A stretch of DNA of 64,000 bases from Ignavibacteria bacterium (GTDB taxonomy: Bacteria > Bacteroidota > Ignavibacteria > DATCTW01), in NCBI GenBank assembly GCA_036567745.1, contig DATCTW010000054.1:37488-101487 (forward strand), written 5' to 3'. This document shows, piece by piece, positions 18,938 to 48,719 of the stretch. The translations under genes and the position numbers were made by a program. The notes below the pieces were generated by a model. That model did no database searches, was not told the origin of the DNA, and was given only the letters and a program-made list of their open reading frames with translations. Within the stretch, counting starts at the first letter, position 1, and each line of letters begins with the position of its first letter.

Positions 18938-18955
18938 TCACAAAGAGGCTATAAA

Positions 18956-19726: not shown

Positions 19727-19747
19727 ATAATCGGGAGTAAGAATTAA

Positions 19748-20590: not shown

Positions 20591-20633
20591 ACAACTAATA
20601 TGTTTAATATGGCAAAATTTTAGGAGATTTAAA

Positions 20634-21755: not shown

Positions 21756-21804
21756 TTTAAGATACAATCTTAAATCATTATGTAGATGTTTTGGGAGATA
21801 AGAT

Positions 21805-23844
21805 ATGATAAAATTAAAATCTACTATTTTCATGGTTTTGTTTCTTTTTTTGTTTAGCGAAGGATTTTCTCAGAATATAAATGATAATATTCAGAAGTTG
21901 GATAGTTTAGCCTCAAAGCTAACTCAAAAAAATAAAGTTATTCGTGATGTAGCTACTTATAAAGTATTTCCTGAGAATAGTGATAACATCACAGATAATG
22001 GATATCTTTATACTAAAATGAATGGTTATCAACTTCCTTTAAACCATCCTTTAGTAAAATTATTGGATGAAATTTTTTATAATGAAGATCAAAATGGAGT
22101 AGTTGTATCAAATGATAAAGCTATAGGTTATAGAAAGGATGGACAGGATAAAACTTATAAAAGAGGCAATCTTTTCAGAGAAGATTCAACTATTGGAGTA
22201 AACGTTTATTATGCGCAGAAACCAAAATCACAAATGAATACAAGTGTTACAAAACGTTTTGAAATAGCTGAGATATTAATTCTTAAGAAGACAAATATAC
22301 CAGATGTTGATCAATCTGAAGAAGAGGAAGAAACTGGTACCAGAAGACGTACAAGGACTAAAACCACAAAATATATACAATATCCAAAAAATATGTGGTA
22401 TTCACTTTCAGGAACAAATTTAAAGAAAGCATTAGAAGGTTATGATAAAAATTTATATAATCAGATATTACGTTTATATGATGAGAGAATCGATGATTTA
22501 AATTTGAGCCCTTATTTCCCATTACCTAAAAGAGGTCCATTCCTTGTATCTGACTCTCTTGGTATAAATACTTTTACCAGTTATTTTACTAATACTCCAA
22601 TCTTCACTCCTCCTTCACCTGAAGAAACTATTAATAATTTACCTGAAGTTACTGGATTAGATCCTAACTCATTAGATGTTACTGCTTTTTCACCTTTTAT
22701 TAATGTCAAAGCAGGTGTAGATAATATTACAACAATACCTATTTCGAATAGATCAAAAAATCCAATAAAAATTGAGCAAGTTTCTTTAGAAAAACCAGAT
22801 CCTGTATGGAAAATTAAGAGTGCGGTATCAGTATTAGAACCTGAAAATTCATCAGAAATTGAGGTTGTATATAATCAATCTAAACCTGATAAAGAAGATA
22901 GGAATAATCTTATAATAAAGTGGTCTGAAGAGGGAGTTAAAACTGGAACTACTGTTGTACCTATAGCTGGAAAGACATCTCCTGAACCCCCGAGAATCTT
23001 TATAGATTTTTCACCACTATATTTTTCAGGTATATTTAGATTTGCAAATGATTGGAATTTTTCTTTTAAATTAGGTGATAAAGAAATAAATTATCCTTTC
23101 TGGTCAACAGGTAATTTAAGTTTACTTGCTGGATATCAGAATATTGTTAAGTTTGGTGTTGTATTACCTGCTAATTTTACAAATGGTGAAACCTTTGATG
23201 TTGGTTCAATAGTTGCTCCTCAGAGAAAACTTCATGGTACTGTAGGTTTGGCAGTTGAATTTAATTTGCAACCCACAGTGATGAGAAGTATTAATGAAGC
23301 TTTTGCTTTAGGTGGATATTTCTATTATGGTAAAATTAAAGATGGTAAAGAATATAGTAAGAAACCTCTAAATATTAATAATGATTTTTATTATGTGCCA
23401 ATTATAGCTCAAGTTTACTATCCTCTTATATTTAAGGATCTGGAGAAAAACCCTAAGAACATATTTCAAGTAAAAGCTGGTTTTAGTTACCATCAGGTTA
23501 AAAGAGAGCATATAATAACTAAATCGGAAATAGGACAAATGTTTTATGGGAAAGAAGAAAGATTAGTAACAAAGGATGATGTTGGCAAAGTGTATGAAGT
23601 AGAACTTATTAAGAAAGTTCCTTCACCTCTTGTTAGAATAGAATATATGAATCTTAATTCAGGTAATCAATTTGGTTTTGGTTTCCAGTTTGTTAATAAC
23701 ATTGCTAATTTTGATGCATGGCTTGAAGTTACAAAATGGTTGAGGATAGAAGCTTCGTACGTTCAACCTTTGAGAGATGCTGAAGAATGGGAAAATTCTG
23801 CTTTCTTCTGGATTTCACCGAGAATTTATTTCCCAATACCATAA
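21805..23844 (+). CDS. secreted hypothetical protein, probable outer-membrane component
   Basis: Signal peptide 'MVLFLFLFSEGFSQ'; C-terminal half rich in alternating aromatic/hydrophobic beta-strand-like segments. Confidence 0.4.
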   Translation: MIKLKSTIFMVLFLFLFSEGFSQNINDNIQKLDSLASKLTQKNKVIRDVATYKVFPENSDNITDNGYLYTKMNGYQLPLNHPLVKLLDEIFYNEDQNGVVVSNDKAIGYRKDGQDKTYKRGNLFREDSTIGVNVYYAQKPKSQMNTSVTKRFEIAEILILKKTNIPDVDQSEEEEETGTRRRTRTKTTKYIQYPKNMWYSLSGTNLKKALEGYDKNLYNQILRLYDERIDDLNLSPYFPLPKRGPFLVSDSLGINTFTSYFTNTPIFTPPSPEETINNLPEVTGLDPNSLDVTAFSPFINVKAGVDNITTIPISNRSKNPIKIEQVSLEKPDPVWKIKSAVSVLEPENSSEIEVVYNQSKPDKEDRNNLIIKWSEEGVKTGTTVVPIAGKTSPEPPRIFIDFSPLYFSGIFRFANDWNFSFKLGDKEINYPFWSTGNLSLLAGYQNIVKFGVVLPANFTNGETFDVGSIVAPQRKLHGTVGLAVEFNLQPTVMRSINEAFALGGYFYYGKIKDGKEYSKKPLNINNDFYYVPIIAQVYYPLIFKDLEKNPKNIFQVKAGFSYHQVKREHIITKSEIGQMFYGKEERLVTKDDVGKVYEVELIKKVPSPLVRIEYMNLNSGNQFGFGFQFVNNIANFDAWLEVTKWLRIEASYVQPLRDAEEWENSAFFWISPRIYFPIP

Positions 23845-23888
23845 ATGAAAATATGAAAATAAAAATAAAGATGTGGAGTTCGATTATT

Positions 23889-25388
23889 ATGAAAAAAATA
23901 TTATTTACCGGTTTTGCAATACTCTATATCCTCTTTTCTTTTAATTTATATGCTCAAAAAAAAGATAGTTTGAGTTTGGTTAGATCTCAAATTGAACCTA
24001 CAGAAAAGAGAATAGTTAACCCGGTTAACACTTTTTGGGATGAATTAAATTCACTCAGAGATAAAACTCCTGATCAACTATCAGTAGATGATATAAAAAA
24101 TATTGAAAATAAGATAGCGTATTTGGAAACTGAAAATAAAAGGTTGGATATTATTTTAAATGCTATTACTGAACTCAACCCTTTTTTCAGAGAATATCTT
24201 CCTCAATATATAGTTGAAGATGAAGAAATGCAAATAAGAATTGTTAATCAACTAAGGATGTATTTTGGGTTAAGTGAACCGGAGATGAATAGGCTTAAAA
24301 GTGAGATTAGGGGTGGAAAAATTAAAATAAGAGTTATTCAGAAACCTCTTACAGAAGAGGAACTTCAAGAAGAAGAACCAGAAAGAGCTTTAATTGGTAT
24401 ATATCTTGACCAGTATAAAATTGTTGGAAGCCAAGCTTTAACTGCTACCTTAGGTGAAGATTTATATAATAAACTTTTAGCTGATGTAGATAAATTTAAA
24501 ATAAAAACAGGTTCAGGCCCACTTTATAAAGAGCCTAAATTTGCTACTACAGATATTTCTATTTCAGGTGGTGCTTTAGCACTTAACTTACAAGCAGATA
24601 CTGCTCTCATTCAAATAGGTGCAAATGTAGCAATTGGTTATGATATTCTTAATTTACCTTTCTGGTATGGTGCTGTATGGAATGTTTCTGCTTTTTATCG
24701 ACCCGATCCAGATCAATATTATATGCTTGGAACACTTATTCCTTTTAGACCTGGTGATTCAGAAGTTGATTTAGTTGGGCCAATTCAATTAAAATCAAGA
24801 AAACTTAATGGCACTTATGGTATTTCTGCTGAGTTTGGTAAAAAACTTTTTGATATTTTACTAAAAGAAGATGAATGGGAAGGAAATAGTACTCTTGGAA
24901 TTTATATTGGTGGTAGTTTCAGTTATAGTGATTTAAAGAAGAGAGGGGATGAAATACTTGTTGATATAAATAGCAATAAAATAGGTTATTTGAATAACAA
25001 TCCTTTCTATTATATTGGTGCACATTATATTGGTTTTCTTGGATTTGAAGCACCAGCTTTATTGAAAGGTTTGCATTTTAATATTGGTTATGGTGCTTTT
25101 GCTGTTCACAAGACTGTAGTAGAAAAAGATGGTGAATCATTAAAGAAACTATCAAAGACAACAATATCTGATTTATATGCTAAACTTACATATGCACACG
25201 AAGGTATTACTGATTATACAATCTCTGCACAATATTTTAATCAATCACTTATGCTTTCTGGAATATTAAAAGTTTTTTCATGGCTCGGTCTTGAAGTTAA
25301 ATATGCAAGAGTCGTTGGAAGAGATCCTGATCCTTATGAATATCGAGATTACGTAACTGTTAGTCCTAGATTTTCATTTAGTTTCTAA
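23889..25388 (+). CDS. outer-membrane beta-barrel protein (hypothetical)
   Basis: Signal peptide 'AILYILFSFNLYAQ'; C-terminus 'SPRFSFSF' with terminal Phe typical of OMP barrels; start moved to ATG with GGAG RBS (ORF track 23787). Confidence 0.5.
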   Translation: MKKILFTGFAILYILFSFNLYAQKKDSLSLVRSQIEPTEKRIVNPVNTFWDELNSLRDKTPDQLSVDDIKNIENKIAYLETENKRLDIILNAITELNPFFREYLPQYIVEDEEMQIRIVNQLRMYFGLSEPEMNRLKSEIRGGKIKIRVIQKPLTEEELQEEEPERALIGIYLDQYKIVGSQALTATLGEDLYNKLLADVDKFKIKTGSGPLYKEPKFATTDISISGGALALNLQADTALIQIGANVAIGYDILNLPFWYGAVWNVSAFYRPDPDQYYMLGTLIPFRPGDSEVDLVGPIQLKSRKLNGTYGISAEFGKKLFDILLKEDEWEGNSTLGIYIGGSFSYSDLKKRGDEILVDINSNKIGYLNNNPFYYIGAHYIGFLGFEAPALLKGLHFNIGYGAFAVHKTVVEKDGESLKKLSKTTISDLYAKLTYAHEGITDYTISAQYFNQSLMLSGILKVFSWLGLEVKYARVVGRDPDPYEYRDYVTVSPRFSFSF

Positions 25389-25465: not shown

Positions 25466-26788
25466 ATGATAAAAATGATTAAATATTTTAATATAGTTTT
25501 TTTCTTATTATTAATTATTACTTCTTTTTCTTTTGGACAAACTCCTAAATCAAAACTATATGTGGTAGGCGATAAAGTTAAACTTATTCCCAATGAATAC
25601 GAAAAAAATATCCAGGTATTTAATGTTGATATTAGCAACTTTCCTGAAATAAATTTAATTATGAAAGTATCACCTAACTATCTATCAAGGTTAAAGAATA
25701 AAAATCTCAAATTATACCAAGATGGGAAAGAACAAAAAATACTTTCAATTGAAAAAACTACTTATAAGAATAAAATTCCTGTTGATATAGTTATTGTAAT
25801 TGATAAAACTGGAAGTATGATAGATTATATTGATAAGATAAAACTTAATATTCAGAACTTTATTCAAAATATTTTGATGAAAGGAATTGATTACAAAATT
25901 GGAATAGTCACATTTTCTGATATTGTTGATTCTGTATATCAATTTACTCGTAATATTGATGAAATAGAGAAAAATTTAGCAAGTATAAAAGCAATTGGGG
26001 GTAACGATAAAAATGAGAATGCTTTAGAAGGTCTTAATGCAGCATATAATTATAATTTTAGACCAGATGCCAAAAAAATTATCCTGATTTTTACTGACGC
26101 TTTATTCCATTACAAAGGATTTTGTGGAGATGGAAAGACAGATTTAACACTTGAAGAAGTTATTGATTTAATGAAAAAGAAAAATATTAATGTTTATACG
26201 GTTGTTCCTCTTATGTACGACCAATACAAAAAATTATCAAAAAACACAGGAGGTAAAACTTATAATATTACTGATAATTTTAATTCATTATTAGAAACTT
26301 TTAGTGATGAAATAAGCCAATATTATACTGTTAGATATTTATATAATGAAAACTATATTAGTGATTCAATAGAAGTAGAATTATACGATAAAAAACACGA
26401 TGAATATCTGGTATCAAATAATGTTTCATTTTTAGATTTGAATAAAATGATGGTAATTAGCAACGATATATTATTTGATTTCAATAAATCAGAAATAAAA
26501 CCAATTTATTATAAAAATCTTAAAAATCTAACAAAATTTTTAAAGTTGCGAAATAGTATAGAGATTTCAATCAATGGTCATACTGATAATATCGGTTCTG
26601 ATGAATATAATAATAAACTTTCTTTAGATAGAGCTAATTCAGTAAAAGAATTTTTAATTAAAAATGGTGTTTCTGCAAGTAGATTAACTATCTATGGTTT
26701 TGGAAAAACTAAACCAATAGCTTCAAATGATACAGAACAGGGTAGGCAATTAAATCGTAGAATTGAAATTTTTATTACAAAAAAATAA
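25466..26788 (+). CDS. von Willebrand factor A domain protein with C-terminal OmpA-like peptidoglycan-binding domain
   Basis: MIDAS-like 'VIVIDKTGSM'; C-terminal 'NGHTDNIGSDEYNNKLSLDRANSVKEFL...RRIEIFI' OmpA_C signature; signal peptide. Confidence 0.75.
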   Translation: MIKMIKYFNIVFFLLLIITSFSFGQTPKSKLYVVGDKVKLIPNEYEKNIQVFNVDISNFPEINLIMKVSPNYLSRLKNKNLKLYQDGKEQKILSIEKTTYKNKIPVDIVIVIDKTGSMIDYIDKIKLNIQNFIQNILMKGIDYKIGIVTFSDIVDSVYQFTRNIDEIEKNLASIKAIGGNDKNENALEGLNAAYNYNFRPDAKKIILIFTDALFHYKGFCGDGKTDLTLEEVIDLMKKKNINVYTVVPLMYDQYKKLSKNTGGKTYNITDNFNSLLETFSDEISQYYTVRYLYNENYISDSIEVELYDKKHDEYLVSNNVSFLDLNKMMVISNDILFDFNKSEIKPIYYKNLKNLTKFLKLRNSIEISINGHTDNIGSDEYNNKLSLDRANSVKEFLIKNGVSASRLTIYGFGKTKPIASNDTEQGRQLNRRIEIFITKK

Positions 26789-26811: not shown

Positions 26812-27507
26812 CTATAGTATACCCTTATTTATAAGCTCTTCTTTAACTTGATATAATTTCCACCATGGTTTATCTGGTCTATAGTGATGTTCATAATGAT
26901 AACCAAAAAAGTAACAAGATATAAAAGCCAACAAATGATTCTTTCTTTGAGTTCTTGAATTATAAGGTTGCATTTCTTCTGTATGTGGTAATTTGTGAGG
27001 TCTGTAAGTTCCAAAATAGAATAATTGAAAAGTAGAAAGTATTGCTGGAACAACCCAAAATGACCATATAGATAGTTCAGTAAATTTTATTTTTAATAAG
27101 TTGAATATAATTGCCATTATAATAATTTGTGTAAAACTTAGATATCTATACATAAAAAAGGCAAACCACAAGAATGGATTTTGATGTTTCGTACTATAAT
27201 CTGGATCATTTTCTGAACCAACAAAAGCATGGTGTTTTTTATGGTTATTTACAAGCTTTTTATATGATAATCCTGCAAATAAAAAACTGGATATATAACC
27301 AATCAACTTATTTATTATTCTATTAGATGAAATAGCATTATGCATTGCATCATGGCCTGTAATAAATAGTCCTGTAAATAGAAAAATCTGAAGAAGAAAA
27401 TGGAAATAAAATGAAAAAGAGAACAAATTGATATTTACATAAGATAAGGAATATATTAAATTAAATATCCATAAAACAATAATAATTATTGAAATTACTA
27501 CACCCAT
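26812..27507 (-). CDS. crtW: beta-carotene ketolase, CrtW-type di-iron membrane oxygenase
   Basis: Three His boxes 'HDAMH', 'HKKHHAFVGSENDPDY', 'FGYHYEHHYRPDKPWW' matching the CrtW pattern; sits in the carotenoid operon. Confidence 0.7.
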   Translation of the reverse strand: MGVVISIIIIVLWIFNLIYSLSYVNINLFSFSFYFHFLLQIFLFTGLFITGHDAMHNAISSNRIINKLIGYISSFLFAGLSYKKLVNNHKKHHAFVGSENDPDYSTKHQNPFLWFAFFMYRYLSFTQIIIMAIIFNLLKIKFTELSIWSFWVVPAILSTFQLFYFGTYRPHKLPHTEEMQPYNSRTQRKNHLLAFISCYFFGYHYEHHYRPDKPWWKLYQVKEELINKGIL

Positions 27508-27512
27508 AAGAT

Positions 27513-28433
27513 TTAAGTTTCTTTTAATATTTTGTTATTAGAAATTATGTTATTGTTTTTTGAAAAGGCTGCTTTGATAAAATAGTTCATACTATAAAAT
27601 ATTTTTTCAAATGTAGAAAGATATATTCTTTTACTAAACACATTATAATTAGCTTTTTCAATTTTATTTAAAATTGCAGAATATGTTTTAGCCATTATTA
27701 TTACGGTTGAACGGGATCCATCATTAGTTAAATAAGGAAATCCATTTAAGCCATCCTGGTAAAAAGATCTTGCTCGTTCAATCTGGAATTTCATTAGGTT
27801 GATGAAGTTATTATTAATTATTTTGTTTTTTAGTTCTTCTTTTGAATAATTAAATCTTTTTAAATCTTCAGCAGGTAAATAATATCTATCCATTTCAGTA
27901 TCTTCTTTTATATCTCTTAGTATGTTTGTAAGTTGCATTGCAATGCCTAATGATTCAGCATATTTTAGAGCCTCGATAGATGTTATGCTAAAAATATGAG
28001 TCATTATCAAACCAACAATAGAAGCTACATGATAACAGTATTTCCTTAATTCTGAAAAAGTTTCAAAAGAAACTTTTTTATTATCGAATTCTAATCCAAT
28101 TAGTAAATCATAAAAGTATTTATTTGGTATATTATAATAGTTTACTACATAAGATAGAGAATAAAATCTATCATCTTTTTCAAGATCTCCGGTATATATT
28201 TTATCTATTATTTGCTTCAATTCTAATATCTTTTTTGATTTTTCTGTTGTAGATAAGTTTGAACTATCCATTATATTATCAGAATATCTACAGAAATCAT
28301 AAACTGAATAAGCTGCGTATCTTTTATCTTTAGGCAAAAAAAAGGAAGAGAAATAAAAGCTTTTTGCATAATATCTGGTCGTTTCTTTACTTTTATTAAA
28401 TGAGAGCTGCAGTGCTTTATCTTTCGTATTCAA
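27513..28433 (-). CDS. crtB: phytoene synthase
   Basis: Squalene/phytoene synthase signatures 'YAKSFYFSSFFLP', 'YDFCRYSDNIMD', 'LGIAMQLTNILRDIKED'. Confidence 0.85.
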   Translation of the reverse strand: MNTKDKALQLSFNKSKETTRYYAKSFYFSSFFLPKDKRYAAYSVYDFCRYSDNIMDSSNLSTTEKSKKILELKQIIDKIYTGDLEKDDRFYSLSYVVNYYNIPNKYFYDLLIGLEFDNKKVSFETFSELRKYCYHVASIVGLIMTHIFSITSIEALKYAESLGIAMQLTNILRDIKEDTEMDRYYLPAEDLKRFNYSKEELKNKIINNNFINLMKFQIERARSFYQDGLNGFPYLTNDGSRSTVIIMAKTYSAILNKIEKANYNVFSKRIYLSTFEKIFYSMNYFIKAAFSKNNNIISNNKILKET

Positions 28434-28465
28434 TGAAATACCCTTTCGGATTAAAAACTTATGTT

Positions 28466-29965
28466 TTAATTTGTTATTATTAATCTTTCTACAATTTTAG
28501 CAGAAGAAATTACACCTGGCAACCCTGCTCCAGGGTGAGTTCCTGCACCAACAAAAAACAAGTTTTCAATATCTTCACTTTTATTATGAGGTCTAAACCA
28601 AGCGGATTGAGTTAATGTTGGTTGAAAAGAAAAAGCAGACCCCAAATAACAATTATAATGATTTCTGAAGAATACTGGATCAATGTGAAATTTAACAGAT
28701 ATATTATTTTTTAAGTCTGGTAAGTAATTTTTCTCCAGAAAATCAATTATTTTTTCAGAGTATTCTAAAGATACTTTATTCCAATTAATATCTGCTTTAA
28801 GATTTGGAACAGGAGATAATGCATAAAAAAGTGAAGTGCCATGAGGAGCTATAGATTTATCATGTTTAGTTGGCATATAAACATAAAGTGAAAAATCATC
28901 TGGTAAACTCTTCCCATTAAATATTTCGTTAATTAATTCCTTATAGCGTTTCGATAAAATAATATTATGGTGTTCGAGAGTAGAATCAGAATAATCTTTA
29001 TTTGCACCAAAGTAAAGAACAAATAGGGACATACTATGTTTCATTTTATCAATTTTTGTGCTTGAATATTTTTTTAATACTCTTTGATTTACCATATTTA
29101 GATAAGTATAAGAAATGTCAGAATTTGCGATAATGTAATCTGCATTAATAATTTTACCATCAAATAATTTGATACCCTGTGCTCTTTTGCCCTGTAGAGT
29201 TATTTCTTTTACTTCAGTATTATATTCTATCTTGCCACCTAAATCATAGATTAGCTTTTCAAGAGCTTTGACAAGTGCACCCAAACCTCCTTCTGCATAG
29301 TGAACACCCCACCTACGTTCGAGATAGTGAATCAGCGAATAAATTGAGGAGGTATTGAACGGATTTCCTCCTATAAGTAATGGATGAAAAGTAAAACATC
29401 TTCGCAAAAATTCGTTTTCTATGTAACTTGATACATACTTATAAACACTTTTGTATGATTTCAACCAAATAAGATGTGGTGCAACCTTTAGCATGTCGGA
29501 GAATTTTAAAAATGGTTTATCTGCTAATTCTACAAAACCTTTTTCAAAAATTGGCTTAGTTTTTTCAATAAATTTATCATATCCATATATGTCGTTATAA
29601 TTAAACTTTGAGATTTGAGCATGAATAAAATCATCTTCTGAATTGTATTCAAAGTATTTACCATCTTCATTAAATATTCTATAAAAAGGGTTAAGAGGTT
29701 TAAGAGATACATAATTATTAATATCTTTATCAGCTAAACTAAAAAGTTCCTCTAACAAAAAGGGAGCGGTAATGACTGTTGGGCCAGCATCAAACTTGAA
29801 TCCGTTTTTTTCAAATACGTACGCTTTTCCACCTGGTTTATTTTGTTTTTCAAATATCGTTACGTCATAGCCACGGGCAAGCAATCTGATAGCTACAGAT
29901 AATCCCCCAAAACCACTACCAATAATTACTATTTTTTTGGACATTTTTTCTTCGAGTACTCCCAA
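28466..29965 (-). CDS. crtI: phytoene desaturase
   Basis: N-terminal FAD fold 'IVIIGSGFGGLSVAIRL...GGKA'; C-terminal 'FFVGAGTHPGAGLPGV' typical of CrtI. Confidence 0.85.
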   Translation of the reverse strand: MGVLEEKMSKKIVIIGSGFGGLSVAIRLLARGYDVTIFEKQNKPGGKAYVFEKNGFKFDAGPTVITAPFLLEELFSLADKDINNYVSLKPLNPFYRIFNEDGKYFEYNSEDDFIHAQISKFNYNDIYGYDKFIEKTKPIFEKGFVELADKPFLKFSDMLKVAPHLIWLKSYKSVYKYVSSYIENEFLRRCFTFHPLLIGGNPFNTSSIYSLIHYLERRWGVHYAEGGLGALVKALEKLIYDLGGKIEYNTEVKEITLQGKRAQGIKLFDGKIINADYIIANSDISYTYLNMVNQRVLKKYSSTKIDKMKHSMSLFVLYFGANKDYSDSTLEHHNIILSKRYKELINEIFNGKSLPDDFSLYVYMPTKHDKSIAPHGTSLFYALSPVPNLKADINWNKVSLEYSEKIIDFLEKNYLPDLKNNISVKFHIDPVFFRNHYNCYLGSAFSFQPTLTQSAWFRPHNKSEDIENLFFVGAGTHPGAGLPGVISSAKIVERLIITN

Positions 29966-30231
29966 ATTATTAAATTAAAGTATATTAAACTGAACCCAAA
30001 CAAAAAATCTTCTACAGGTATGCTAAAAATTCTTAAGCCTAGATTGAAATCAGAATTGTAGAGAACTATTGGTCTACTTGTTAAGTAGCCATTTACAATA
30101 AGCATAAAAATAATCATTACTAACCAAAAAATTGCAAAACTTCTTTTTCTAAACAAAAAAGTTTTAAGTTTTAGATCCAGTAAAAAAGCTATAAAAGTTG
30201 ATATTATTGTTAAAAAAGTATACTCTTTCAA
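29929..30231 (-). CDS. lycopene cyclase domain protein (heterodimeric CrtYcd-type subunit)
   Basis: About 100-aa membrane protein with 'PVEDFLFGFSLIYFNLIIWE' (PxE(E/D) motif); adjacent paralogous half. Confidence 0.7.
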   Translation of the reverse strand: MKEYTFLTIISTFIAFLLDLKLKTFLFRKRSFAIFWLVMIIFMLIVNGYLTSRPIVLYNSDFNLGLRIFSIPVEDFLFGFSLIYFNLIIWEYSKKKCPKK

Positions 30232-30536
30232 TTCTCTTTAGTATAATATTTTACACTTTCCCAAACGAATAAAGATACAAAAGGTATAATTATAAAAAAT
30301 AAAATTTCTTCAATCGGTATATTAAATACAAAAATATTAACAATTTTATCTAAAGCAAAGTTCCAATGGCCCCTTTGAATTGCAAAATAATCCCAAGTGA
30401 GATATAAAATTAAAGGTATAATAATAGAAAAAAATAATGGTTGTAAGTTACGATAGAATTTTAGTTCTTTACTAAAACTCATTATCAGTGGAATAATTAA
30501 AGTAAATCCTAATACTAAAAGATATTCATATTGCAT
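30228..30536 (-). CDS. lycopene cyclase domain protein (second CrtYcd-type subunit)
   Basis: About 102-aa membrane protein with 'PIEEILFFIIIPFVSLFVWE'; overlaps neighbours by a few nt (operon). Confidence 0.7.
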   Translation of the reverse strand: MQYEYLLVLGFTLIIPLIMSFSKELKFYRNLQPLFFSIIIPLILYLTWDYFAIQRGHWNFALDKIVNIFVFNIPIEEILFFIIIPFVSLFVWESVKYYTKEN

Positions 30537-31323
30537 CTTTATACTTTCTTTTAATTGTCCTTATTACTGAAATCATAAGTAAAAAACCAGCTAAAGTATA
30601 AAGCCAGTATCCATTTGCTAAATTAATAATTAAAAATTGTAAAATTAAAATTATCATTAGCAATGAAGGTAAAGAAATAATATTAAAATTATTCAATGGT
30701 AGAAATTTTATGCTTCTATTTAACATATAAACAAAAGTAAAACCCATTATAAACCATGTAAGAAAGTTTTGAAACGGTATAAAATTATTTTTCCAGATCC
30801 AATATTTATTTATAAAAGAACCAAAAGGTTCTAACATAATATCAAAAGATAAAATGATAAAAGCAGCACTTAAAGGAATTGTAAAACTATTTTTAGGATT
30901 AGGTATTAAATATCGACAAATCAAGAAAGAATTTATCACAATATAAAGCCATGATAGAGTTATTGCAAGAGGAACAGAGCCTGGTAGAAAAGGGATAAAA
31001 TATTCTGAATAGTAATACTCACCAAAAAGGTACCCGGTTTTTAAACCAATTGCTTCAAGAGCTGTAGAAAGTATAAATATAGCACCAACAAAAAAAATAC
31101 TTGTGATCTTTTCTGTTATCGAAACGAAATAAAGTATCGAAATAACTGCTATTATTGATAAATATAAGGATGCCACCCAAAAGAAATTTTCAGTTATTAA
31201 ACCTCTTAACATAAAAATTATACCAAAAGGAAATAAGATAAGGAGTAGAATAAATAGGAACTTAATTGTTATAGCTAATATTCGATTATTATTTGGAATT
31301 ATTATATTCAGTATAGAATTCAT
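30526..31323 (-). CDS. polytopic membrane protein in the carotenoid operon (candidate CruF-like carotenoid 1',2'-hydratase)
   Basis: Six to eight predicted TM helices; functional guess rests on position in the operon only. Confidence 0.35.
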   Translation of the reverse strand: MNSILNIIIPNNNRILAITIKFLFILLLILFPFGIIFMLRGLITENFFWVASLYLSIIAVISILYFVSITEKITSIFFVGAIFILSTALEAIGLKTGYLFGEYYYSEYFIPFLPGSVPLAITLSWLYIVINSFLICRYLIPNPKNSFTIPLSAAFIILSFDIMLEPFGSFINKYWIWKNNFIPFQNFLTWFIMGFTFVYMLNRSIKFLPLNNFNIISLPSLLMIILILQFLIINLANGYWLYTLAGFLLMISVIRTIKRKYKDAI

Positions 31324-31837
31324 TAATCACCTTTTCAAAAAAAATATTCATATCTTCTTCAAGTTTATCTCGCATTTTATTGCTAATAAAATTTTGACCT
31401 AATAGTGGTGCTAAAAAATGTATATCACTCCCTTTTTCACGTACAGTTTTAATTATCATCTTAATCTTTAATTCGGTTTTATTTATATCAATTTGAGTAA
31501 GTGATGCCTGGCAAAACATATAATCATTACTATTATTTAAAGTCTCATAAATTAAAACACCTTTTTGAGGACTTCTTTCTTCTAAAATATAAGTGGTTTT
31601 GTAATTTTTTGAAAGAGGCATATCAATTTCGTAAGTCCAGGATGTTCTTTTATTGTCTATCCTTTTTACATCTATCATCCCTGGATAATATTTTTGATAA
31701 ATTGATAAGTCTCGTAGTTTAAGATCAAGGTAATCATAAGGTAAATTGATAATTTGAGATTTTTCAACTTCAGCGTAAATTGTAAAACTGTTTGTACAAA
31801 GAAAGAATAGATTTAAAATTATTAACAAGCAATTCAT
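31289..31837 (-). CDS. hypothetical secreted protein in the carotenoid operon
   Basis: Signal peptide; no recognisable motif. Confidence 0.35.
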   Translation of the reverse strand: MNCLLIILNLFFLCTNSFTIYAEVEKSQIINLPYDYLDLKLRDLSIYQKYYPGMIDVKRIDNKRTSWTYEIDMPLSKNYKTTYILEERSPQKGVLIYETLNNSNDYMFCQASLTQIDINKTELKIKMIIKTVREKGSDIHFLAPLLGQNFISNKMRDKLEEDMNIFFEKVINEFYTEYNNSK

Positions 31838-31839
31838 AA

Positions 31840-32976
31840 TTATTTTATTTTATAGTTTCGATTTTTCCAATTAGTTTTACCATAAAAAACAGTTAAATAA
31901 AAAGATCTTGTTGCTAGTATAAGCATTACAAGTATTCCAATTGGATGCAAAAAAATTGAAAAGAAACTTTGTTTAAATCTTATATACAATAATAATCTCA
32001 TTATATAGATAATAAAAATTTGTATTAAAAGCAAATAAAAAATTGTAGAATCAAAAATTTGGTATAAAAAGTAGATAAATATACCAACAAATGGATAAAC
32101 AAAAAGAAATAAATTTACAAGGCACATTACAATTAAAATTGTAAACGAATTTCCAATACCTGCAGAAATGTTTTTTGAAAAGCCAATAATTATATCTTTC
32201 ATACTAGAATACATTCTACAAGAAATTAGATCTACACCATCCAGCAATCTCAATTTAAGGTTATTTTCTTTAATTTTTCTTGCGAGATGAATATCCTCAA
32301 TAATAGATGATTTTACAGATATGTGTCCACCAATTTTATCGTAAGCTGACCTTTTAAATAAAAGATATTGCCCAATTGAAGCAGAAAACCTTGGAAACCG
32401 ATTATATTTTAACATAAACATCGGAAGAAATACAAATAATACAAAGTAAAGAAGAGGAACAAGTAATTTTTCCGATAAAGAAGTCATTTCTTGTCTAGGT
32501 ATTACTGATAAAAGGTCTGCATTCGTTAATTTTGAATACTCAACTATCTTTTTTAAAGATTGTGGATGGTGAACTGTATCTGCATCTGTAAATAGCAAAT
32601 AGTTTCCTGAAGCATGATCAGATAATATTTTACAAGCGTAATTTTTACCAATCCATCCTTCAGGAAGTGAGTGATTTTCAATAATTTTTATTTTTTGATT
32701 ATTACTGAACTTTTTTAATATTTCACCTGTATTATCTTCAGAGTCGTCATTTAAAACTATGATTTCATATTTTGAGTAATCTAATGAAAGGAGAGATTTT
32801 ATACATTTTTCTGCATTTTTTTCTTCATTTCTCATTGGTACTAAAATTGATACGAAAGGATATTCAAAAAGTTTACAGGATATATTTATTCCTCTTTTTA
32901 TTAAGAATAAATTCCAAATTAGAATAGTTAAAAATGAAAAGAGAAAAACAATAATTAAAATATTAAAGTATAGCAT
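31840..32976 (-). CDS. family 2 glycosyltransferase, membrane-bound (CruC-like carotenoid glycosyltransferase candidate)
   Basis: GT-A signatures 'ISILVPMRNEE', 'IIVLNDDSEDNTGEIL', 'FTDADTV'; C-terminal TM helices; operon context. Confidence 0.7.
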   Translation of the reverse strand: MLYFNILIIVFLFSFLTILIWNLFLIKRGINISCKLFEYPFVSILVPMRNEEKNAEKCIKSLLSLDYSKYEIIVLNDDSEDNTGEILKKFSNNQKIKIIENHSLPEGWIGKNYACKILSDHASGNYLLFTDADTVHHPQSLKKIVEYSKLTNADLLSVIPRQEMTSLSEKLLVPLLYFVLFVFLPMFMLKYNRFPRFSASIGQYLLFKRSAYDKIGGHISVKSSIIEDIHLARKIKENNLKLRLLDGVDLISCRMYSSMKDIIIGFSKNISAGIGNSFTILIVMCLVNLFLFVYPFVGIFIYFLYQIFDSTIFYLLLIQIFIIYIMRLLLYIRFKQSFFSIFLHPIGILVMLILATRSFYLTVFYGKTNWKNRNYKIK

Positions 32977-32986
32977 ATAGAATTAA

Positions 32987-33721
32987 TTAGTCAATTACAC
33001 TTTTTCTTCTAAAGTTGTGGAAGGAATTACTTATTGATGTTTTTCCTTTAATTATTTCTAAGTATTCGTCAAACTTTTTGTTTGAAATATTATTTTTTTG
33101 CAATTCGAGATCATCAACTAAAATATTAAGTAATTTATTTGTCAATAGTTTGTGATTGAAATTTGGATTTATAAATTCTACAGGTTTTGAAATTGAAATA
33201 AAAATTTCTGGTCTCTGCTCTTCGATAAATTCATAATGAAATGTTATAGGTATTGCTTGAACTTTAGATGTTTTGTTGATAATTCTTGCAATCCCTGTAT
33301 AAAACCTGATAGGCCTATATTGAGAGGGTAACATTTCACCTTGAGGAAAAATCCATATTGCATTGTTTCCATTATTTAAAATTTGAGCTGCAAAATCTAT
33401 ACTTTTAAGAGCGCTACGTGCGTTATTTCTATCAATTGAAAAGGTACCAAACTTTGAAAAAAATGGGTATTTTTTTAGTTGAACTATATCCATAATAGCA
33501 TAGCCATTCAATCTCCATCTTATTACAGATAAATAAAAGACAATTATTGGATCCCACCAGCAAGAATGATTCATATAAAATATAATTGGATATTTGTTTA
33601 TAATGTTTTTTATTTTTTCTTCTCCTCTTAAGTGCAATTTTGCGAAATGTTTTTTTAATATCATAATTACATAAAATGAAAATAATTTTTGTAGAAATCT
33701 ATTTTTTTGAGGGTAAATCAT
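32987..33721 (-). CDS. lysophospholipid/PlsC-family acyltransferase (CruD-like carotenoid-glycoside acyltransferase candidate)
   Basis: HX4D acyltransferase motif 'NHSCWWDP' and 'FPQGE' block; first gene of the carotenoid operon. Confidence 0.65.
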   Translation of the reverse strand: MIYPQKNRFLQKLFSFYVIMILKKHFAKLHLRGEEKIKNIINKYPIIFYMNHSCWWDPIIVFYLSVIRWRLNGYAIMDIVQLKKYPFFSKFGTFSIDRNNARSALKSIDFAAQILNNGNNAIWIFPQGEMLPSQYRPIRFYTGIARIINKTSKVQAIPITFHYEFIEEQRPEIFISISKPVEFINPNFNHKLLTNKLLNILVDDLELQKNNISNKKFDEYLEIIKGKTSISNSFHNFRRKSVID

Positions 33722-33811
33722 AATTTTAATTATGAAATTGATATTAATAAAATATTTTTTTATTTTTTAAAATAAGGAAAAAAAGTAATATTATCAAGAA
33801 AAGAGATTTTT

Positions 33812-35464
33812 ATGACAACAAAATCAATTTCTGCACCGCGTGGTATAAAATTAACTTGCAAAGGATGGCTACAAGAAGCTGCATTGAGAATGCTGATGAA
33901 TAATCTTGATCGAGAAGTAGCTGAAAAACCTGAAGAGTTAATTGTATATGGTGGCAAAGGTAAAGCTGCCAGAAATTGGGAATGCTATGAGGCTATAATT
34001 AAAGCTTTAACAGACCTCGAAAATGATGAGACTTTATTGATTCAATCAGGAAAACCCGTAGGAATTTTTAGAACTCATTTAGATGCCCCAAGAGTAATAA
34101 TCTCAAATTCTATGCTTGTTCCTGCCTGGGCTAATTGGGATGAATTTCGAAGACTTGAGAATTTAGGGTTAACTATGTACGGTCAAATGACTGCAGGAAG
34201 TTGGATTTATATTGGCTCTCAGGGTATATTACAGGGGACTTATGAAACTTTTGCTGCTTGTGGAGAAAAATATTTTAAAGGAGATTTATCCGGAAAAGTA
34301 ATTGTATCCTCTGGACTTGGGGGGATGGGAGGTGCTCAACCTTTAGCTGCAACTATGAATGGTGCAATATTTCTTGGAATTGAAGTAGATGAAGAAAGAA
34401 TAGAAAAGCGATTAAAAACAAAATATGTAGATTTTAAATCAAATGATCTTGATGAAGCACTGGTTTTAATTAATAAAGCTAAAGAAAAGAAAGAAGCAAT
34501 TTCGATTGCTTTACTTGGTAATGCAGCTGATATTATCCCAGAACTGGTTAAAAGAAATTTTGTACCTGATATTCTAACCGATCAAACATCTGCCCATGAC
34601 ACTTTAAATGGTTATGTGCCTAATGGCTTGCCATATAAAGAAGCATTACAACTTAGAAAAGAAAACCCTCAGAAATATATTGCACTTGCCAAACAGTCGA
34701 TAGTAACTCATCTGAAAGCAATGCTTGAATTACAAAAAAGAGGAGCTATTACTTTTGATTACGGTAATAATATTAGGGGTGAGGCAAAAGCTAATGGAGT
34801 TGATAATGCTTTTGATATACCAGGGTTTGTTCCAGAGTATATTAGGCCATTATTCTGTGATGGGAAAGGGCCATTCAGATGGGTAGCTTTAAGTGGAAAT
34901 CCTGAAGATATTTATAGGACTGATCAGGCAATTATTGATACATTCCCTGAAAATAAATCTTTAATAAGATGGATTGAAAAAGCACAAAAATTAATTACCT
35001 TCCAGGGCTTACCTGCAAGAATTTGTTGGTTAGGTTATGGTGAAAGAGCTAAAATGGGTAAAATTTTTAATGATCTTGTTGCAAGTGGGGAAGTATCTGC
35101 TCCTATAGTTATTGGGCGTGATCATTTAGATTGCGGTTCTGTTGCTTCACCAAATAGGGAAACCGAAAAAATGCTTGATGGTAGTGATGCTATAGCAGAT
35201 TGGCCTATTTTAAATGCACTTCTAAATGCAATTGGAGGCGCAAGTTGGGTTTCAGTTCATCATGGGGGTGGTGTTGGAATAGGACTCTCCATTCATGCTG
35301 GAATGGTTATAGTGGCTGACGGTACAAAAGAAGCAGAAAAAAGACTTGAAAGAGTATTAACTTATGATCCGGGAATGGGTATTATTAGACATGCTGATGC
35401 AGGTTACGAAAAAGCTATTTCTAATGCCAAAAAGTTTAATATAAAAATTCCAATGTTAAAATAA
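33812..35464 (+). CDS. hutU: urocanate hydratase
   Basis: Full-length match to the urocanase pattern ('[22 protein letters not shown]', '[15 protein letters not shown]', NAD-binding GGMGGAQP). Confidence 0.9.
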
Positions 35465-35516: not shown

Positions 35517-38500
35517 TTATTTAATAAACATCATTTTTCTTGTTTGAGAAAAGTTGTTTACTTTCAAAATATAAAAATATACTCCGCTTGTAAGATCTTT
35601 TGGTATAAAATCAATTGAATAAGTGCCAGCAGGTTTGTATTCATTAACTAATTCTTCAACTTCTCTTCCATAGATATCAAATAGTTTTAGAGATACAAAT
35701 CCATTTTCTTTTATAGCATAATATATTCTTGTACTAGGATTAAATGGATTGGGATAATTTTGTTTTAACTCGTAACTTAAAGGTATCTCATTTTTATCGT
35801 TTACCTGAACGTTGGTTGTGGCTTCAGCTAAAATTACAATTTCATTATTTGATGTAATATCATTTGATAAAACTTTGATTTTTGCATCTTTTACACCAAT
35901 TGTTTTTGCTGTAAATTTTACTGTTACACTATCACTTTGACCTTCAGCTATATTATAGGGGTATGTTTTGTTTATTATTTCAAATTCAGAAGCATTATTA
36001 CCTGTTACCGTTATTCCAGATATTGTAAGAATTGCATTCCCAGAATTACCTATTCTAAAACCACTATACTTAATGTTATCTTTCATCACTTTTCCGAAAT
36101 CAACCTTTTGAGAAAGAATCATATTAGGTGCTGCTCCTAAACCAAATAAAGGTATTAACTTTTCAGGAATATTGGGGTCATTTGTTTTTAATTTTAAAAC
36201 AGAACTATAATTCTTTGGCTCATTAGGTGAAAACTTTATTACAATTATTTTTTCTTCTGCGGGTTGAATTTGAATTGGTAATGGAATATAGTTAACAAAA
36301 AATCCATCTGCGTTTATAAGTGAAACTGAGTCAACAATAAGAGTAGATAATCCATTATTTCTAATTTTTAAAGTTTTAATAGAACTATCTTTAACATTTA
36401 CTTTATTGAAATTAAAAGCAGAATCTGATAGTGTCATGATTGGGAATGATGAGTTGCCATTTAACAATATCTCGAAAATTGGTTTTTGTAAATCATTACT
36501 TTTAATTCTTAAAATTGCATTTGCTTGAGATAAACTTGATTGATATCTTATTACAATATTATCTGATTCACCAGCTAATAATGTAAAAGGAACAGATTTA
36601 CCGATTATTGAGAATCTATTCTTATTAGTGCCAATAATGTTCAATGAATCTATCACAAGAGGGGCATTCCCATTATTTTTGATAGAAATAATAGTATCTT
36701 TATAAAATCCAGTATTGACATATCCAAAATCTATTATGTTATAAGCTAAATAAAGAGAAGGTAATGAAGCTGTTTTTCCTGTACCTTTCAAAATGATATA
36801 ATCTTCTGGTTTATTTTGGTCATTACTTGTTATTACGAGTCTAGCGTATCTTAAACCAGTATCAGAGGGGATAAAGCTTACCTTGATATTTTTTTCTTCA
36901 TTTGGAGCTAAAACTATGTTATTGTAATTTGCTCCTAAAATAAAATCAGTATAAAATGCACCATCAAGATATATATTACCAATTTCAAGATTAGAGTTTC
37001 CATTATTTTTTATTACTATTTCAGTATCAGATTTTCCACCAATATCAGTTGTATTGTATTGAATTGTACTGACATATTTATATAAAGATGCATATTTAAC
37101 GTTGGCAATAATTGGTATGTTTAATATACTTAACGATGGATCATTTGAGTTTATACTAAGTTGTGCACTCTTATTTCCTCCAGGTAACGATGCATTAAAT
37201 CTAAATTTTACTGTATCAGATTGATTGAAAAGTAATGTTTTTGGAGAGTTATTAATGATAAACCCAAAACTTGAGTTATCACTTCCAGTGAATGAAAAAG
37301 ATGATAATATTAAATCGAGGTTGCCTGTATTTGTAATGATGAGAGTTGTATCTTTATATTTGCCTGCAACGCAGTCTCCCAGATTTATTGATGAATAATT
37401 TGTAGAAATTACAGCTTTGCCTCCTCCAAAACCAGTTAAGTTGATAGTTCTTATTGGAGTAAGATCATTACTTGTAATTGTGAGTGTTGCGTTTTTTATG
37501 CCGGCTGTATGAGGATAAAATAGTATTTGAACTGTATCATTAGCACCACTCTGCAATGATACATTAGTTTTTTTATTTAATATCTTAAAAGAAACTGTAT
37601 CCCCTGTGATAACTTTATCAAATAATGTAACAGTTACATTTGTTTTATTAAATGATGACTGTTTTAGTAAAGTTGAGGAGTTGTGGATTATCAAGTTTAA
37701 AGTCTTGCTTACCTGACCAATAAAAGTGCTATCAAAATTGATTGAAGAAGGTGTAAAAGTTAAATATGATTGTTGAACATTTGCGCTTACTGTAATAGTA
37801 AAACTAGTGTTATTCTTTGAGTTATTGTTGATTGTAATAGTTCCTGTTTTTACACCTAAAATATTAGGTTTTAACCTTATTGTGATGTAATATTTTTCGG
37901 ATGGATTTAGGATTACACCACTTGAAGGTAATGTAGTTGTAATTTCAAAGGAAGAGTCAGCAGTTGCTAATCCCACAGAGAATATTTTAAGTTTATAAGA
38001 ACCAGTGTTTGTTATTTCAATTGTAGAATCTTTATTGCCCGAACCTATTCCTACGACCCCAAAATTAATTGTAGTTTTATTTGCAGCTATTATCGAACCA
38101 AATACTTTTCCAGTTACATTCAAATTTGCTGTAGGTTGATTGCCTGAATTATTGTTGAAAGTGATTGTTCCTGAAAAAGTGCCAACAGAATCAGGGTTAA
38201 ATCTTATTTTAATATTTTTACTGCTATTAGGTGATACTTTAATAGGTAACGTTTCATTTAGTGAAAACTTATTGTTACCTCCTGTATATACTACAGATGT
38301 GATAACTAATGAATCAGTTAATGATGTGTTTGTAATTAACAGTAAAGAATCACTTGGCGTAGACAAAAATCCTAATGAATCAAAGTTTATTGTGGTTTTA
38401 TTTTGACTCCAGACTGAGCTACTTGCAATTCCATTACCACTTAAAGGCACATTCAAAGTCGCCCCGGCACCACCATAAGAAATTATTAGGTTTGCACTTT

Positions 38501-48641: not shown

Positions 48642-48715
<74 letters not shown>

Positions 48716-48719
48716 CAAT

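Follow-up and report, generated by a model that had tools for sequence, protein, structure and literature searches.

Structure of the gene block

A compact gene block in a low-GC Ignavibacteria MAG raises two questions: which carotenoid it makes, and what role is played by the one small protein in it that lacks a family match. We addressed these questions in a 64-kb window, meaning the whole stretch of DNA that was analysed. Nine tightly packed ORFs occupy positions 26812-33721 on the minus strand, with the same coordinates as in the initial annotation, and eight of the nine have strong profile matches in Pfam and NCBIfam, far beyond chance; the carotenoid block described there is real. Successive genes, followed in the direction of transcription, are spaced by +10, +2, -35, -11, -4, -37, +32 and +5 nt (the -35 and -37 values vary with the start codon chosen), and no terminator-like site was detected on the operon strand inside the block, which agrees with the earlier view of one transcription unit. 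From the gene content, we consider it probable that the nine genes form one operon for the pathway to a monocyclic keto-carotenoid glycoside fatty-acid ester. A pathway of this kind is already described for Ignavibacterium album; the new element is a protein of 182 aa.

Enzymes of the pathway

The block encodes a phytoene desaturase, CrtI (28466..29965, 499 aa), which matches TIGR02734 at 574 bits (cutoff 238) and carries the dinucleotide-binding motif GSGFGG at residue 16. The gene was called as 492 aa from the ATG at 29944, and this is likely the true start. The protein is distinct from CrtD, as it scores only 211-218 bits on CrtD models, whereas true CrtD paralogs in related loci reach 476-511 bits (NF042421). 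Phytoene synthase, CrtB (27513..28433, 306 aa), matches PF00494 SQS_PSY at 225.6 bits. Its scores on the CrtB and HpnD equivalogs tie below cutoff (210 bits, cutoff 550, and 209 bits, cutoff 278.6); the assignment as phytoene synthase is based on operon context. A predicted di-iron beta-ring 4-ketolase (26812..27507, 231 aa) has three hydrophobic segments, the His boxes HDAMH at 52, HKKHH at 89 and HYEHH at 204, and a PF00487 FA_desaturase match of 91.9 bits. Its near full-length match to CrtW (NF045690, 217.5 bits, model 26-251 of 257) exceeds that to the next family by 165 bits (CrtR, 52.5 bits; DesA, 19 bits). Because the score is below the equivalog cutoff of 350 bits, we file this protein as CrtW-like and not as a certified equivalog. 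The identities previously proposed for these three genes, CrtI, CrtB and a CrtW-type ketolase, are all retained.

As in a heterodimeric cyclase, two neighbouring genes of about 100 aa encode one lycopene cyclase domain apiece, both above cutoff. The CrtYc-type subunit (30228..30536, 102 aa) scores 42 bits on PF18916 and 65.5 bits on TIGR03462, and the CrtYd-type subunit (29929..30231, 100 aa, TTG start) scores 64.9 and 57.8 bits, respectively (cutoffs 27 and 39.4). These scores bear out the earlier CrtYcd-type assignment of both. The start of CrtYd overlaps the stop of CrtYc by 4 nt (TTGA). The crtYd gene was missed by gene callers on L001-L006, yet it is kept at 47-62% identity in related loci that reach this position. 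We assume that CrtYcd closes a single ring.

The 265-aa integral membrane protein (30526..31323; an alternative start gives 228 aa) has six hydrophobic segments and belongs to the CruF family (PF04240 Caroten_synth, 103.5 bits, cutoff 25, model 8-207 of 209), which settles the choice between CruF and another family. The initial annotation had counted it as one of two unassigned genes that might have new carotenoid-modifying or carotenoid-binding functions; it is simply a CruF family member, and only the 182-aa protein still has no family match. We predict that the CruF-family protein is a carotenoid 1',2'-hydratase acting on the psi-end. As the equivalog cutoffs are missed (TIGR03460, 60.7 versus 154.7 bits; NF041333, 45.2 versus 300; NF045693, 39.7 versus 400), substrate and product are not transferable from the archaeal or cyanobacterial equivalogs.

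The remaining enzymes are a GT2 glycosyltransferase (31840..32976, 378 aa) and a PlsC-family acyltransferase (32987..33721, 244 aa), and their earlier labels as CruC-like and CruD-like are kept. The glycosyltransferase matches PF00535 at 97.4 bits, with the motifs DD at 77 and DAD at 131 and five hydrophobic segments, one N-terminal and several C-terminal; matches to HpnB and CruG (116 bits) are below cutoff. The acyltransferase matches PF01553 at 51.8 bits as well as TIGR00530 and has the HX4D motif (H52-SCWW-D57), and orthologs with 31-44% identity hold the same position in related clusters. In 21 of 27 species loci, its gene and the GT2 gene are linked. We predict 1'-O-glycosylation by the CruC-like protein and fatty-acid esterification of the sugar of the carotenoid glycoside by the CruD-like protein. 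Curated models exist for neither role, and both are assigned by family and by synteny, which for the CruC-like protein is conserved linkage to cruF and the acyltransferase gene. In Chlorobaculum tepidum, CruC and CruD reportedly make OH-gamma-carotene glucoside laurate (Maresca and Bryant 2006); the characterised proteins are CT1987 and CT0967. There too, a GT2 and then a PlsC-family enzyme act on a 1'-hydroxy monocyclic carotenoid, a likeness at the level of family. Unlike the product predicted for the window, that of green sulfur bacteria lacks a 4-keto group.

Predicted product

In the reaction order that we infer, CrtB would make phytoene and CrtI lycopene, and the CrtYc/CrtYd heterodimer would close one end to give gamma-carotene. 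CruF would then hydrate the remaining psi-end to a 1'-hydroxyl, CrtW would place a 4-keto group on the beta-ring, the CruC-like GT2 would glycosylate the 1'-hydroxyl, and the CruD-like PlsC-type enzyme would acylate the sugar. We found no crtD paralog in the operon or the 64-kb window, and no candidate 2'-hydroxylase in the window. Without crtD, the operon is predicted to yield a 4-keto-1'-hydroxy-gamma-carotene glycoside ester; a crtD elsewhere in the genome would make this a deoxyflexixanthin glycoside ester.

The cultured bacterium I. album contains 1'-OH-torulene and deoxyflexixanthin, and probably also their glycosyl fatty-acyl esters (Liu et al. 2012, PMC3362086). It belongs to the same class, and its gene cluster resembles the window operon in comprising crtB, crtI, a lycopene cyclase, cruF, a cruC-like glycosyltransferase, a cruD-like acyltransferase and crtW (PMC3362086). 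The gene set and these pigments both fit the original reading of an operon for an acylated, glycosylated, monocyclic keto-carotenoid. The I. album cluster differs in containing crtD, and its cyclase is named 'crtY', whereas that of the window is a split CrtYc/CrtYd; the paper makes no mention of a START-like gene such as that for the 182-aa protein (PMC3362086).

The initial annotation had also matched the block to the salinixanthin or myxol enzyme set of Salinibacter and Rhodothermus, and this part is not upheld. The salinixanthin pathway of Salinibacter ruber and Rhodothermus marinus likewise leads to a monocyclic 4-keto carotenoid acyl glycoside, with CruF, CruC and CruD acting on the psi-end, and the Rhodothermus operon likewise holds unassigned 'hypothetical' genes (PMC5822342, PMC7414004). 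In Rhodothermus, CruF is required before CruC and CruD act (PMC7414004). Unlike the window, however, these organisms use CrtO and CrtY. In Rhodothermus, CrtO is a ketolase of the CrtI family, CrtY is a single chain, cruF is fused to crtB, and cruC is not linked. In addition, salinixanthin has a 2'-hydroxyl and a 3',4'-double bond, and the window operon lacks candidate genes for either. With no crtD and no candidate 2'-hydroxylase in the window, a salinixanthin- or myxol-type psi-end is not predicted from the operon alone.

Two other readings of the gene set have to be weighed. The main products might be bicyclic ketocarotenoids (echinenone or canthaxanthin) formed by CrtYcd and CrtW, with the CruF, GT2 and acyltransferase branch being minor or acting on acyclic intermediates. 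CrtYcd-type heterodimeric cyclases can form two rings in other bacteria, CrtW accepts beta-rings of either kind, and the sequence is compatible with one ring or two. We nevertheless consider bicyclic main products improbable, as three of the nine genes (cruF, GT2 and acyltransferase) require a free psi-end and I. album makes monocyclic pigments with the same gene set (PMC3362086). In addition, one locus (L025) keeps SRPBCC-CruF-CrtI-CrtB without any cyclase, and this shows the chemistry of the psi-end to be the conserved core. The second reading is that the GT2, the acyltransferase and the 182-aa protein are merely co-located and serve another lipid, hopanoid-like or another membrane glycolipid. 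PlsC-type enzymes are generic and the best NCBIfam match of the GT2 is the hopene-associated HpnB, but at 165 bits this is below the cutoff of 379. The order AT-GT2-SRPBCC-CruF-CrtYcd is kept in MAGs labelled as Ignavibacteria, Chlorobiota, Bacteroidota and Acidobacteriota, with identity of the 182-aa protein down to ~21-24%. No hopanoid genes were detected among the window ORFs scanned with Pfam, and the accepted carotenoid glycosyl and acyl transferases, of the CruC and CruD types, belong to these same families. Another lipid as the substrate is thus hardly credible.

An exported START-fold protein in carotenoid clusters

The 182-aa protein (31289..31837, minus strand) belongs to a small unannotated family that is labelled "hypothetical" in the sources. 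Its assignment by HMM, proposed as a check, gave no family: the window protein has no Pfam match even at E<=10, whereas members of its clade match PF10604 (11 of 33, best E 3.6e-9), PF03364 (5 of 33) or PF06240 (3 of 33). It has the helix-grip fold, a beta-alpha-alpha-beta6 sheet round a long C-terminal helix, and among the proteins closest to it in structure are the aromatase/cyclases ZhuI, TcmN and WhiE. By fold and profile-profile relation, it is a member of the SRPBCC/START/Bet v 1 superfamily that lies beyond the current Pfam models.

The protein had been described as secreted, and the N-terminal hydrophobic leader is real. Codons 1-17 (31787..31837, minus strand) encode MNCLLIILNLFFLCTNS, a signal peptide of the Sec type that may be cleaved between TNS and FT. 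Export was judged by signal-peptide rules applied by hand rather than by a trained predictor. A leader of 17-27 aa is present in 27 of 27 family members compared (the window and 26 of the 27 species loci). All of these leaders have a short hydrophobic core and (-3,-1) sites of the kind LKA-E or AKA-E. Of the 26 that are readable, 23 have K/R in the n-region; the window protein's own leader lacks the K/R n-region. The conserved beta1 strand begins at F18, which matches its start in leaderless relatives whose sequence opens with MFT(I/V)xA. There is no C-terminal hydrophobic segment.

At all 32 leader-bearing loci the neighbours are carotenoid genes: this holds for 27 of 27 GTDB species loci and for all 5 of the divergent metagenome contigs, at 21-24% identity. 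The usual order is AT-GT2-SRPBCC-CruF-CrtYcd. The GT2 gene lies immediately upstream of the START-like gene in 23 of the 27 species loci, and the START-like gene is itself followed directly by cruF, often with an overlap or a gap of a few nt, in 23 of 27 species loci and 4 of the 5 divergent contigs. The exceptions are L027, L028 and L032, where it is away from cruF and beside crtW; the P0027 contig, where its neighbours are crtYc and a gene for a CrtZ-like hydroxylase; and L017, where it follows the GT2 gene and cruF is absent. In the leaderless CoxG-like sister clade, carotenoid genes were not adjacent in the 3 places examined.

CoxG (PF06240) is an SRPBCC protein that shuttles menaquinone for Mo-CO dehydrogenase (Kropp et al., bioRxiv 10.1101/2024.01.09.574806; review PMC13525633), and the START-like protein is related to it (hhalign 98.9%). 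Mycobacterial CoxG is cytoplasmic, has a C-terminal TM anchor and is encoded with coxLMS, whereas in the START-like protein the signal peptide is N-terminal, a C-terminal anchor is missing, and the neighbouring genes are those of carotenoid synthesis and not of CODH. We rejected its identification as CoxG, given the carotenoid neighbours throughout, the missing anchor and the weakness of the few PF06240 matches. START domains that bind carotenoids are known in the Bombyx mori CBP and human StARD3. Both (7ztq and 1em2) show 4-8% identity to the START-like protein in structural alignment and no detectable sequence homology, and their domains are larger (about 210-240 aa) and cytosolic or endosomal. 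A 2026 review of bacterial START proteins gives no example of a carotenoid binder, and the terms 'carotenoid', 'periplasm' and 'signal peptide' do not occur in it (PMC13525633).

Possible roles of the START-like protein

Of the modifying and binding functions suggested earlier for this protein, binding is the better choice, as an exported SRPBCC fold is conserved inside such clusters. We tentatively favour an exported carotenoid-binding carrier, by analogy with CoxG, which lifts menaquinone from membranes, and with silkworm CBP and StARD3, which do so with carotenoids. On the periplasmic side of the inner membrane, the protein would bind the completed carotenoid or a late intermediate, and it would retain the pigment or hand it on, the outer membrane being one possible destination; both ligand and destination are what we infer. 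One point against a carrier is that the donors of GT2 and PlsC-type enzymes are cytoplasmic, so that an exported binder would need a flipping step. Another is that the most conserved residues of the protein (R133, D138, H140 and G147) also occur in the leaderless clade without carotenoid linkage; they give no pointer to a carotenoid-specific site and could indicate catalysis. With somewhat less assurance, we suggest that the leader-bearing clade could represent the first bacterial START-fold carotenoid-binding protein, a periplasmic carrier that would remove carotenoid glycoside esters from the inner membrane and possibly deliver them to the diderm outer membrane. In the literature searched, we found no carrier for moving carotenoid glycoside esters from the inner to the outer membrane. 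If the proposal is true, AT-GT2-SRPBCC-CruF would be a combined 'make and move' unit.

Alternatively, the protein may be an accessory of membrane enzymes, most plausibly CruF or CrtYcd, that lifts or orients the psi-end at the surface of the membrane, so that only one end reacts with the hydratase or cyclase and asymmetry is enforced. The frequent position directly upstream of cruF would suit such a role, hydration needs no cytoplasmic cofactor and could occur at the outer face, and the Rhodothermus study leaves open how asymmetry is controlled (PMC7414004). However, the five loci in which the gene is found away from cruF leave 'carotenoid genes', not CruF, as its only constant partner. The CruF enzymes of other bacteria are not known to need a START-like partner, and we think an accessory role unlikely. 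It is quite improbable that the protein is an enzyme for a step without an assigned gene, such as dehydration, cyclisation or isomerisation. SRPBCC enzymes do exist, including norcoclaurine synthase and the polyketide aromatase/cyclases that are among the top structural neighbours, and the protein has the invariant polar residues R133, D138 and H140, together with the clade-specific E134, Y106 and C109. Nevertheless, the polar core is common to leaderless relatives without carotenoid context. With no evident redox cofactor, the exported domain of 165 aa is unable to provide the missing 3',4'-desaturation or 2'-hydroxylation, and an extra non-redox step is not needed for the pigments reported from I. 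album (PMC3362086).

Occurrence and flanks of the locus

Six independent metagenome contigs carry the nine-gene block at 97-100% protein identity, and HEY9188338.1, from an 'Ignavibacteria bacterium' MAG, is 100% identical to the 182-aa protein. The operon is separated from the divergent hutU (urocanase) gene by an AT-rich intergenic region of 90 bp (33722..33811), the presumed promoter region. Weak sigma-70-like matches occur here on the minus strand, TTGTCA-17-GATAAT (33818-33790) and TTGATA-17-TATTTT (33797-33769).

Gene content of the carotenoid operon

The nine co-directional minus-strand ORFs of the carotenoid operon span positions 26812-33721, exactly as placed by the initial annotation. 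In transcription order, the gaps between the genes are +10, +2, -35, -11, -4, -37, +32 and +5 nt, and other starts, which give CruF of 228 aa and CrtI of 492 aa (from the ATG at 29944), reduce or remove the two large overlaps. We detected no terminator-like sites on the operon strand within the nine-gene block. A 90-bp AT-rich gap separates the first gene from a divergent urocanase gene (33812-35464), and a convergent VWA-OmpA gene stops 23 nt past crtW, the last gene. The GC content of the window is 28.7%. The operon recurs at 97-100% protein identity in several metagenomes, on contigs of up to 1.5 Mb (the 1.5-Mb contig being Ga0528472_000001 of JGI 3300050333), and its 182-aa protein matches HEY9188338.1, from a MAG named 'Ignavibacteria bacterium', at 100% identity.

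The first gene (32987-33721, minus strand) encodes a PlsC-family acyltransferase (PF01553, 51.8 bits) with an HX4D motif at H52..D57. It is followed by a GT2 glycosyltransferase with five hydrophobic segments (31840-32976, minus; PF00535, 97.4 bits), on which the HpnB and CruG models score below cutoff. The 182-aa product of the next gene (31289-31837, minus), initially described as a secreted hypothetical protein, has no family match in HMM searches even at E<=10. The 265-aa membrane protein (30526-31323, minus), for which CruF had been raised as a possibility, is assigned to the CruF family by PF04240 (103.5 bits, cutoff 25), with three CruF equivalog models all below cutoff. Two lycopene-cyclase-domain subunits (30228-30536 and 29929-30231, both minus) each exceed the Pfam and TIGRFAM cutoffs, and are followed by CrtI (28466-29965, minus; TIGR02734, 574 bits) and an SQS_PSY-family synthase that is CrtB by context (27513-28433, minus; PF00494, 225.6 bits). 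The last protein (26812-27507, minus) has three His boxes and matches NF045690 over nearly its full length, at 217.5 bits versus 52.5 for the next family. This favors the proposed CrtW-like ketolase over an unrelated fatty-acid desaturase, yet the score does not reach the equivalog cutoff (350).

The gene for the second cyclase subunit begins with TTG, within a TTGA overlap, and was left uncalled by gene callers on six near-identical metagenome contigs (L001-L006); therefore, it is probably missing from the public annotations of those genomes. Related loci that reach that far retain it, at 47-62% identity. A Pfam scan of 38 of the window's ORFs, covering all but about a dozen of those with 120 aa or more (some of this dozen as long as a GGPP synthase), gave no GGPP synthase gene (crtE).

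Predicted product and precedents

Given these assignments, CrtB would convert GGPP to phytoene and CrtI would convert phytoene to lycopene, from which CrtYc and CrtYd would form gamma-carotene. CruF is predicted to produce the 1'-hydroxy derivative and CrtW to add the 4-keto group, and the last steps would be formation of the 1'-O-glycoside by the GT2 enzyme and of its acyl ester by the PlsC-type enzyme. Because the 64-kb window has no crtD paralog, the product predicted from this operon alone is a 4-keto-1'-hydroxy-gamma-carotene glycoside ester. Were a crtD present elsewhere in the genome, the expected pigment would instead be the glycoside ester of deoxyflexixanthin. In nine related Ignavibacteria loci, crtB is followed by a second paralog of the CrtI family; three of the nine were scored and are CrtD-like, two at 511 and 509 bits on NF042421 (cutoff 500) and the third at 476. 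A metagenome scan with a CrtD alignment placed none of the best 80 of >541 matches on known operon contigs, and no link to the window's organism was established for the low-GC matches among those listed.

The enzyme set had been likened to those of Salinibacter and Rhodothermus. Both of those organisms use CrtO and CrtY, have cruF fused to crtB and cruC unlinked, and add a 2'-hydroxyl. Cultured Ignavibacterium album is the closer precedent, and the pathway is of a known kind because both the cluster and the pigments of this bacterium have been reported (PMC3362086). Specifically, Liu et al. described 1'-OH-torulene and deoxyflexixanthin, and ascribed the complexity of elution to glycosyl and fatty-acyl decoration (PMC3362086). 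As a pathway, the operon merely extends the known Ignavibacteria cluster to an uncultured, very AT-rich lineage. Its useful result is the ninth gene, that of the 182-aa protein, which offers a small, soluble and easily expressed candidate that is cheap to test.

A small family of START-like proteins

A word-indexed search of 5.8 billion proteins returned only four clusters for the 182-aa protein, and an exhaustive profile search of 1.84 billion representatives returned 45 family matches. The family is small. An AlphaFold2 model of the protein, based on a 60-sequence alignment, has a beta-alpha-alpha-beta6-alpha helix-grip topology (pLDDT 91.8, pTM 0.84). The Pfam family Polyketide_cyc2 is reached by 11 of 33 members of the leader-bearing clade (best E 3.6e-9), and hhalign links the clade, with 98.9% probability, to a protein tagged COXG. 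Leaderless relatives of about 161 aa score at most 113 bits on the clade HMM, versus at least 189 bits for clade members. Of the few leaderless relatives with an organism name, most are from Acidobacteriota, and some are labelled CoxG. The source labels of the clade members are all 'hypothetical protein', except for one JGI 'CoxG'. Searches of 72,556 plasmids with two family members (tblastn) gave no match.

A START-like component of carotenoid operons appears to be undescribed so far. A 2026 review of bacterial START proteins (PMC13525633) treats the domains as mostly cytosolic and makes no mention of carotenoids, periplasm or signal peptides. Our literature search, of incomplete coverage, found nothing on SRPBCC/START proteins in carotenoid clusters or on periplasmic carotenoid carriers. 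The small carotenoid operon of Rhodothermus marinus includes, between cruF-crtB and cruD, an unassigned 'hypothetical protein (gene 10)' (PMC7414004), a possible further member of the family.

Linkage to carotenoid genes

We scanned one genome per GTDB species and mapped the operon proteins of the window onto the loci found. This identified 27 species loci, 26 labelled Ignavibacteria, Ignavibacteriota or Chlorobi(ota) and one Acidobacteriota. Among the 32 leader-bearing loci examined that do not come from the species of the window, every one has carotenoid genes next to the START-like (SRPBCC) gene, and in 26 of these 32, from MAGs whose labels span several phyla, it lies inside a glycoside-ester module of acyltransferase (AT)-GT2-SRPBCC-CruF. 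The order GT2-SRPBCC-CruF is found in 22 of the 27 species loci, usually within AT-GT2-SRPBCC-CruF-CrtYc-CrtYd-CrtI-CrtB(-CrtD). Three others (L027, L028 and L032) have the gene directly upstream of crtW, one (L025) has a light-regulator-like MerR/B12 gene followed by SRPBCC-CruF-CrtI-CrtB, and one (L017) has GT2-SRPBCC and then unrelated genes.

Five divergent leader-bearing members, with only 21-24% identity, occur in the same module or in another carotenoid neighbourhood; for the three with contig sequence, GC content is 49-61%. Leaderless relatives had no carotenoid neighbours in the three places checked. Since the leader-bearing loci are linked and the leaderless relatives in these three places are not, the carotenoid linkage is, as judged from gene neighbourhoods, specific to the exported clade, and it has survived very deep sequence divergence. 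An HMM of the START-like gene had no match within the 3-kb flanks of the best 80 of >541 CrtD loci.

Several individual loci have features of their own. On L027 (2422-6488), the SRPBCC-CrtW pair comes right after cbb3 oxidase maturation genes (FixP-, FixG- and FixH-like), an arrangement that puts an O2-dependent ketolase beside aerobic respiration genes. On L025 (1417-2292), the MerR-HTH and B12-binding regulator, of the light-responsive LitR/CarH-like type, is directly upstream of the cluster, which has no adjoining cyclase, glycosyltransferase or acyltransferase; no LitR/CarH-type regulator was found in the window. The Acidobacteriota-labelled locus (L007; JBLMZA010000034.1, a MAG contig of 55% GC) reproduces the nine-gene order of the window down to the terminal crtW, with protein identities of 31-57%. 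Unlike it, the Ignavibacteria loci lack crtW at that terminal position, and nine instead carry the crtD-like gene behind crtB. The pattern points to either cross-phylum transfer or a mis-binned contig.

Predicted export signal

A 17-27-residue N-terminal leader is present in all 27 members compared (the window and 26 of the 27 species loci), with K/R near the N-terminus in 23 of 26 readable leaders. A short hydrophobic core (mean Kyte-Doolittle 2.4-3.8 over 10 residues) precedes (-3,-1) small-residue sites, for example LKA|E and AKA|E, a few residues ahead of the conserved F18 that opens beta1. The leader of the window protein (MNCLLIILNLFFLCTNS) has no basic n-region and a possible TNS|F site. 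By rule-based judgement, not a trained predictor, we read the leader as a cleaved Sec signal peptide. An uncleaved transmembrane anchor is less likely, as the hydrophobic cores are just ~10-14 residues long and precede AXA-like sites in most members. A lipoprotein (Cys14 in LFFLC) was considered and rejected: the Cys is not kept even in homologs of 62-64% identity, and its context is no lipobox. Cleavage at IYA|EV was also rejected. Residues F18-A22 open the conserved beta1, which is present too in leaderless relatives beginning MFTIEA, and cleavage is therefore placed before F18.

Proposed role of the START-like protein

Little is understood of how diderm bacteria handle hydrophobic pigments beyond the cytoplasmic membrane. 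The fold of START/SRPBCC proteins surrounds a hydrophobic cavity. CoxG pulls menaquinone out of the membrane (PMC13525633), and animal StARD3 and BmCBP bind and transfer carotenoids. From this cavity and these precedents, we tentatively propose a carotenoid carrier, a reading to which we give a little less than an even chance: the exported protein would bind, on the periplasmic side of the inner membrane, either the carotenoid or its glycoside ester, and may then retain the pigment or hand it on, perhaps to the outer membrane. However, glycosylation and acylation draw on cytoplasmic donors, so a flipping step would be needed. Moreover, the invariant polar residues R133, D138, H140 and G147 are common to the exported clade and to the sister clade that is not linked to carotenoid genes.

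Gene adjacency favors a rival reading, an accessory of CruF or of CrtYcd, but this explanation is weakened by loci that pair the START-like gene with crtW or a CrtZ-like gene. Alternatively, the protein may be an enzyme; because it has no evident cofactor, though, the exported domain could not supply desaturation or hydroxylation. If the START-like protein does bind carotenoids, it might also find use in pigment extraction as a soluble carrier, a use proposed for silkworm CBP.

Other features of the window

Six consecutive plus-strand ORFs (18203-25388; 244, 256, 280, 407, 679 and 533 aa) match no Pfam family at E<=1e-3, and are followed by the gene for the VWA and OmpA-domain protein (25466-26788, plus). 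At least the three genes nearest the operon also adjoin it in the near-identical contigs L001-L003. On the other side, a 1790-aa protein (35517-40889, minus) contains BNR, CarboxypepD_reg and Ig-like (HYDIN/Cep192) repeats; an ortholog fragment on L005, another near-identical contig, carries a Por_Secre_tail (type IX secretion) signal. Next to the gene of the 1790-aa protein lies one for an M28 peptidase (40906-42552). The only Pfam match of a 772-aa ORF (12344-14662, minus) is weak, at 29.4 bits, and is to a family-B DNA polymerase exonuclease domain. Finally, Rfam identifies, at 48642-48821 on the plus strand, a tRNA gene (RF00005, 65.8 bits) and, no more than 7 nt behind it, a small SRP RNA gene (RF00169, 74.3 bits).
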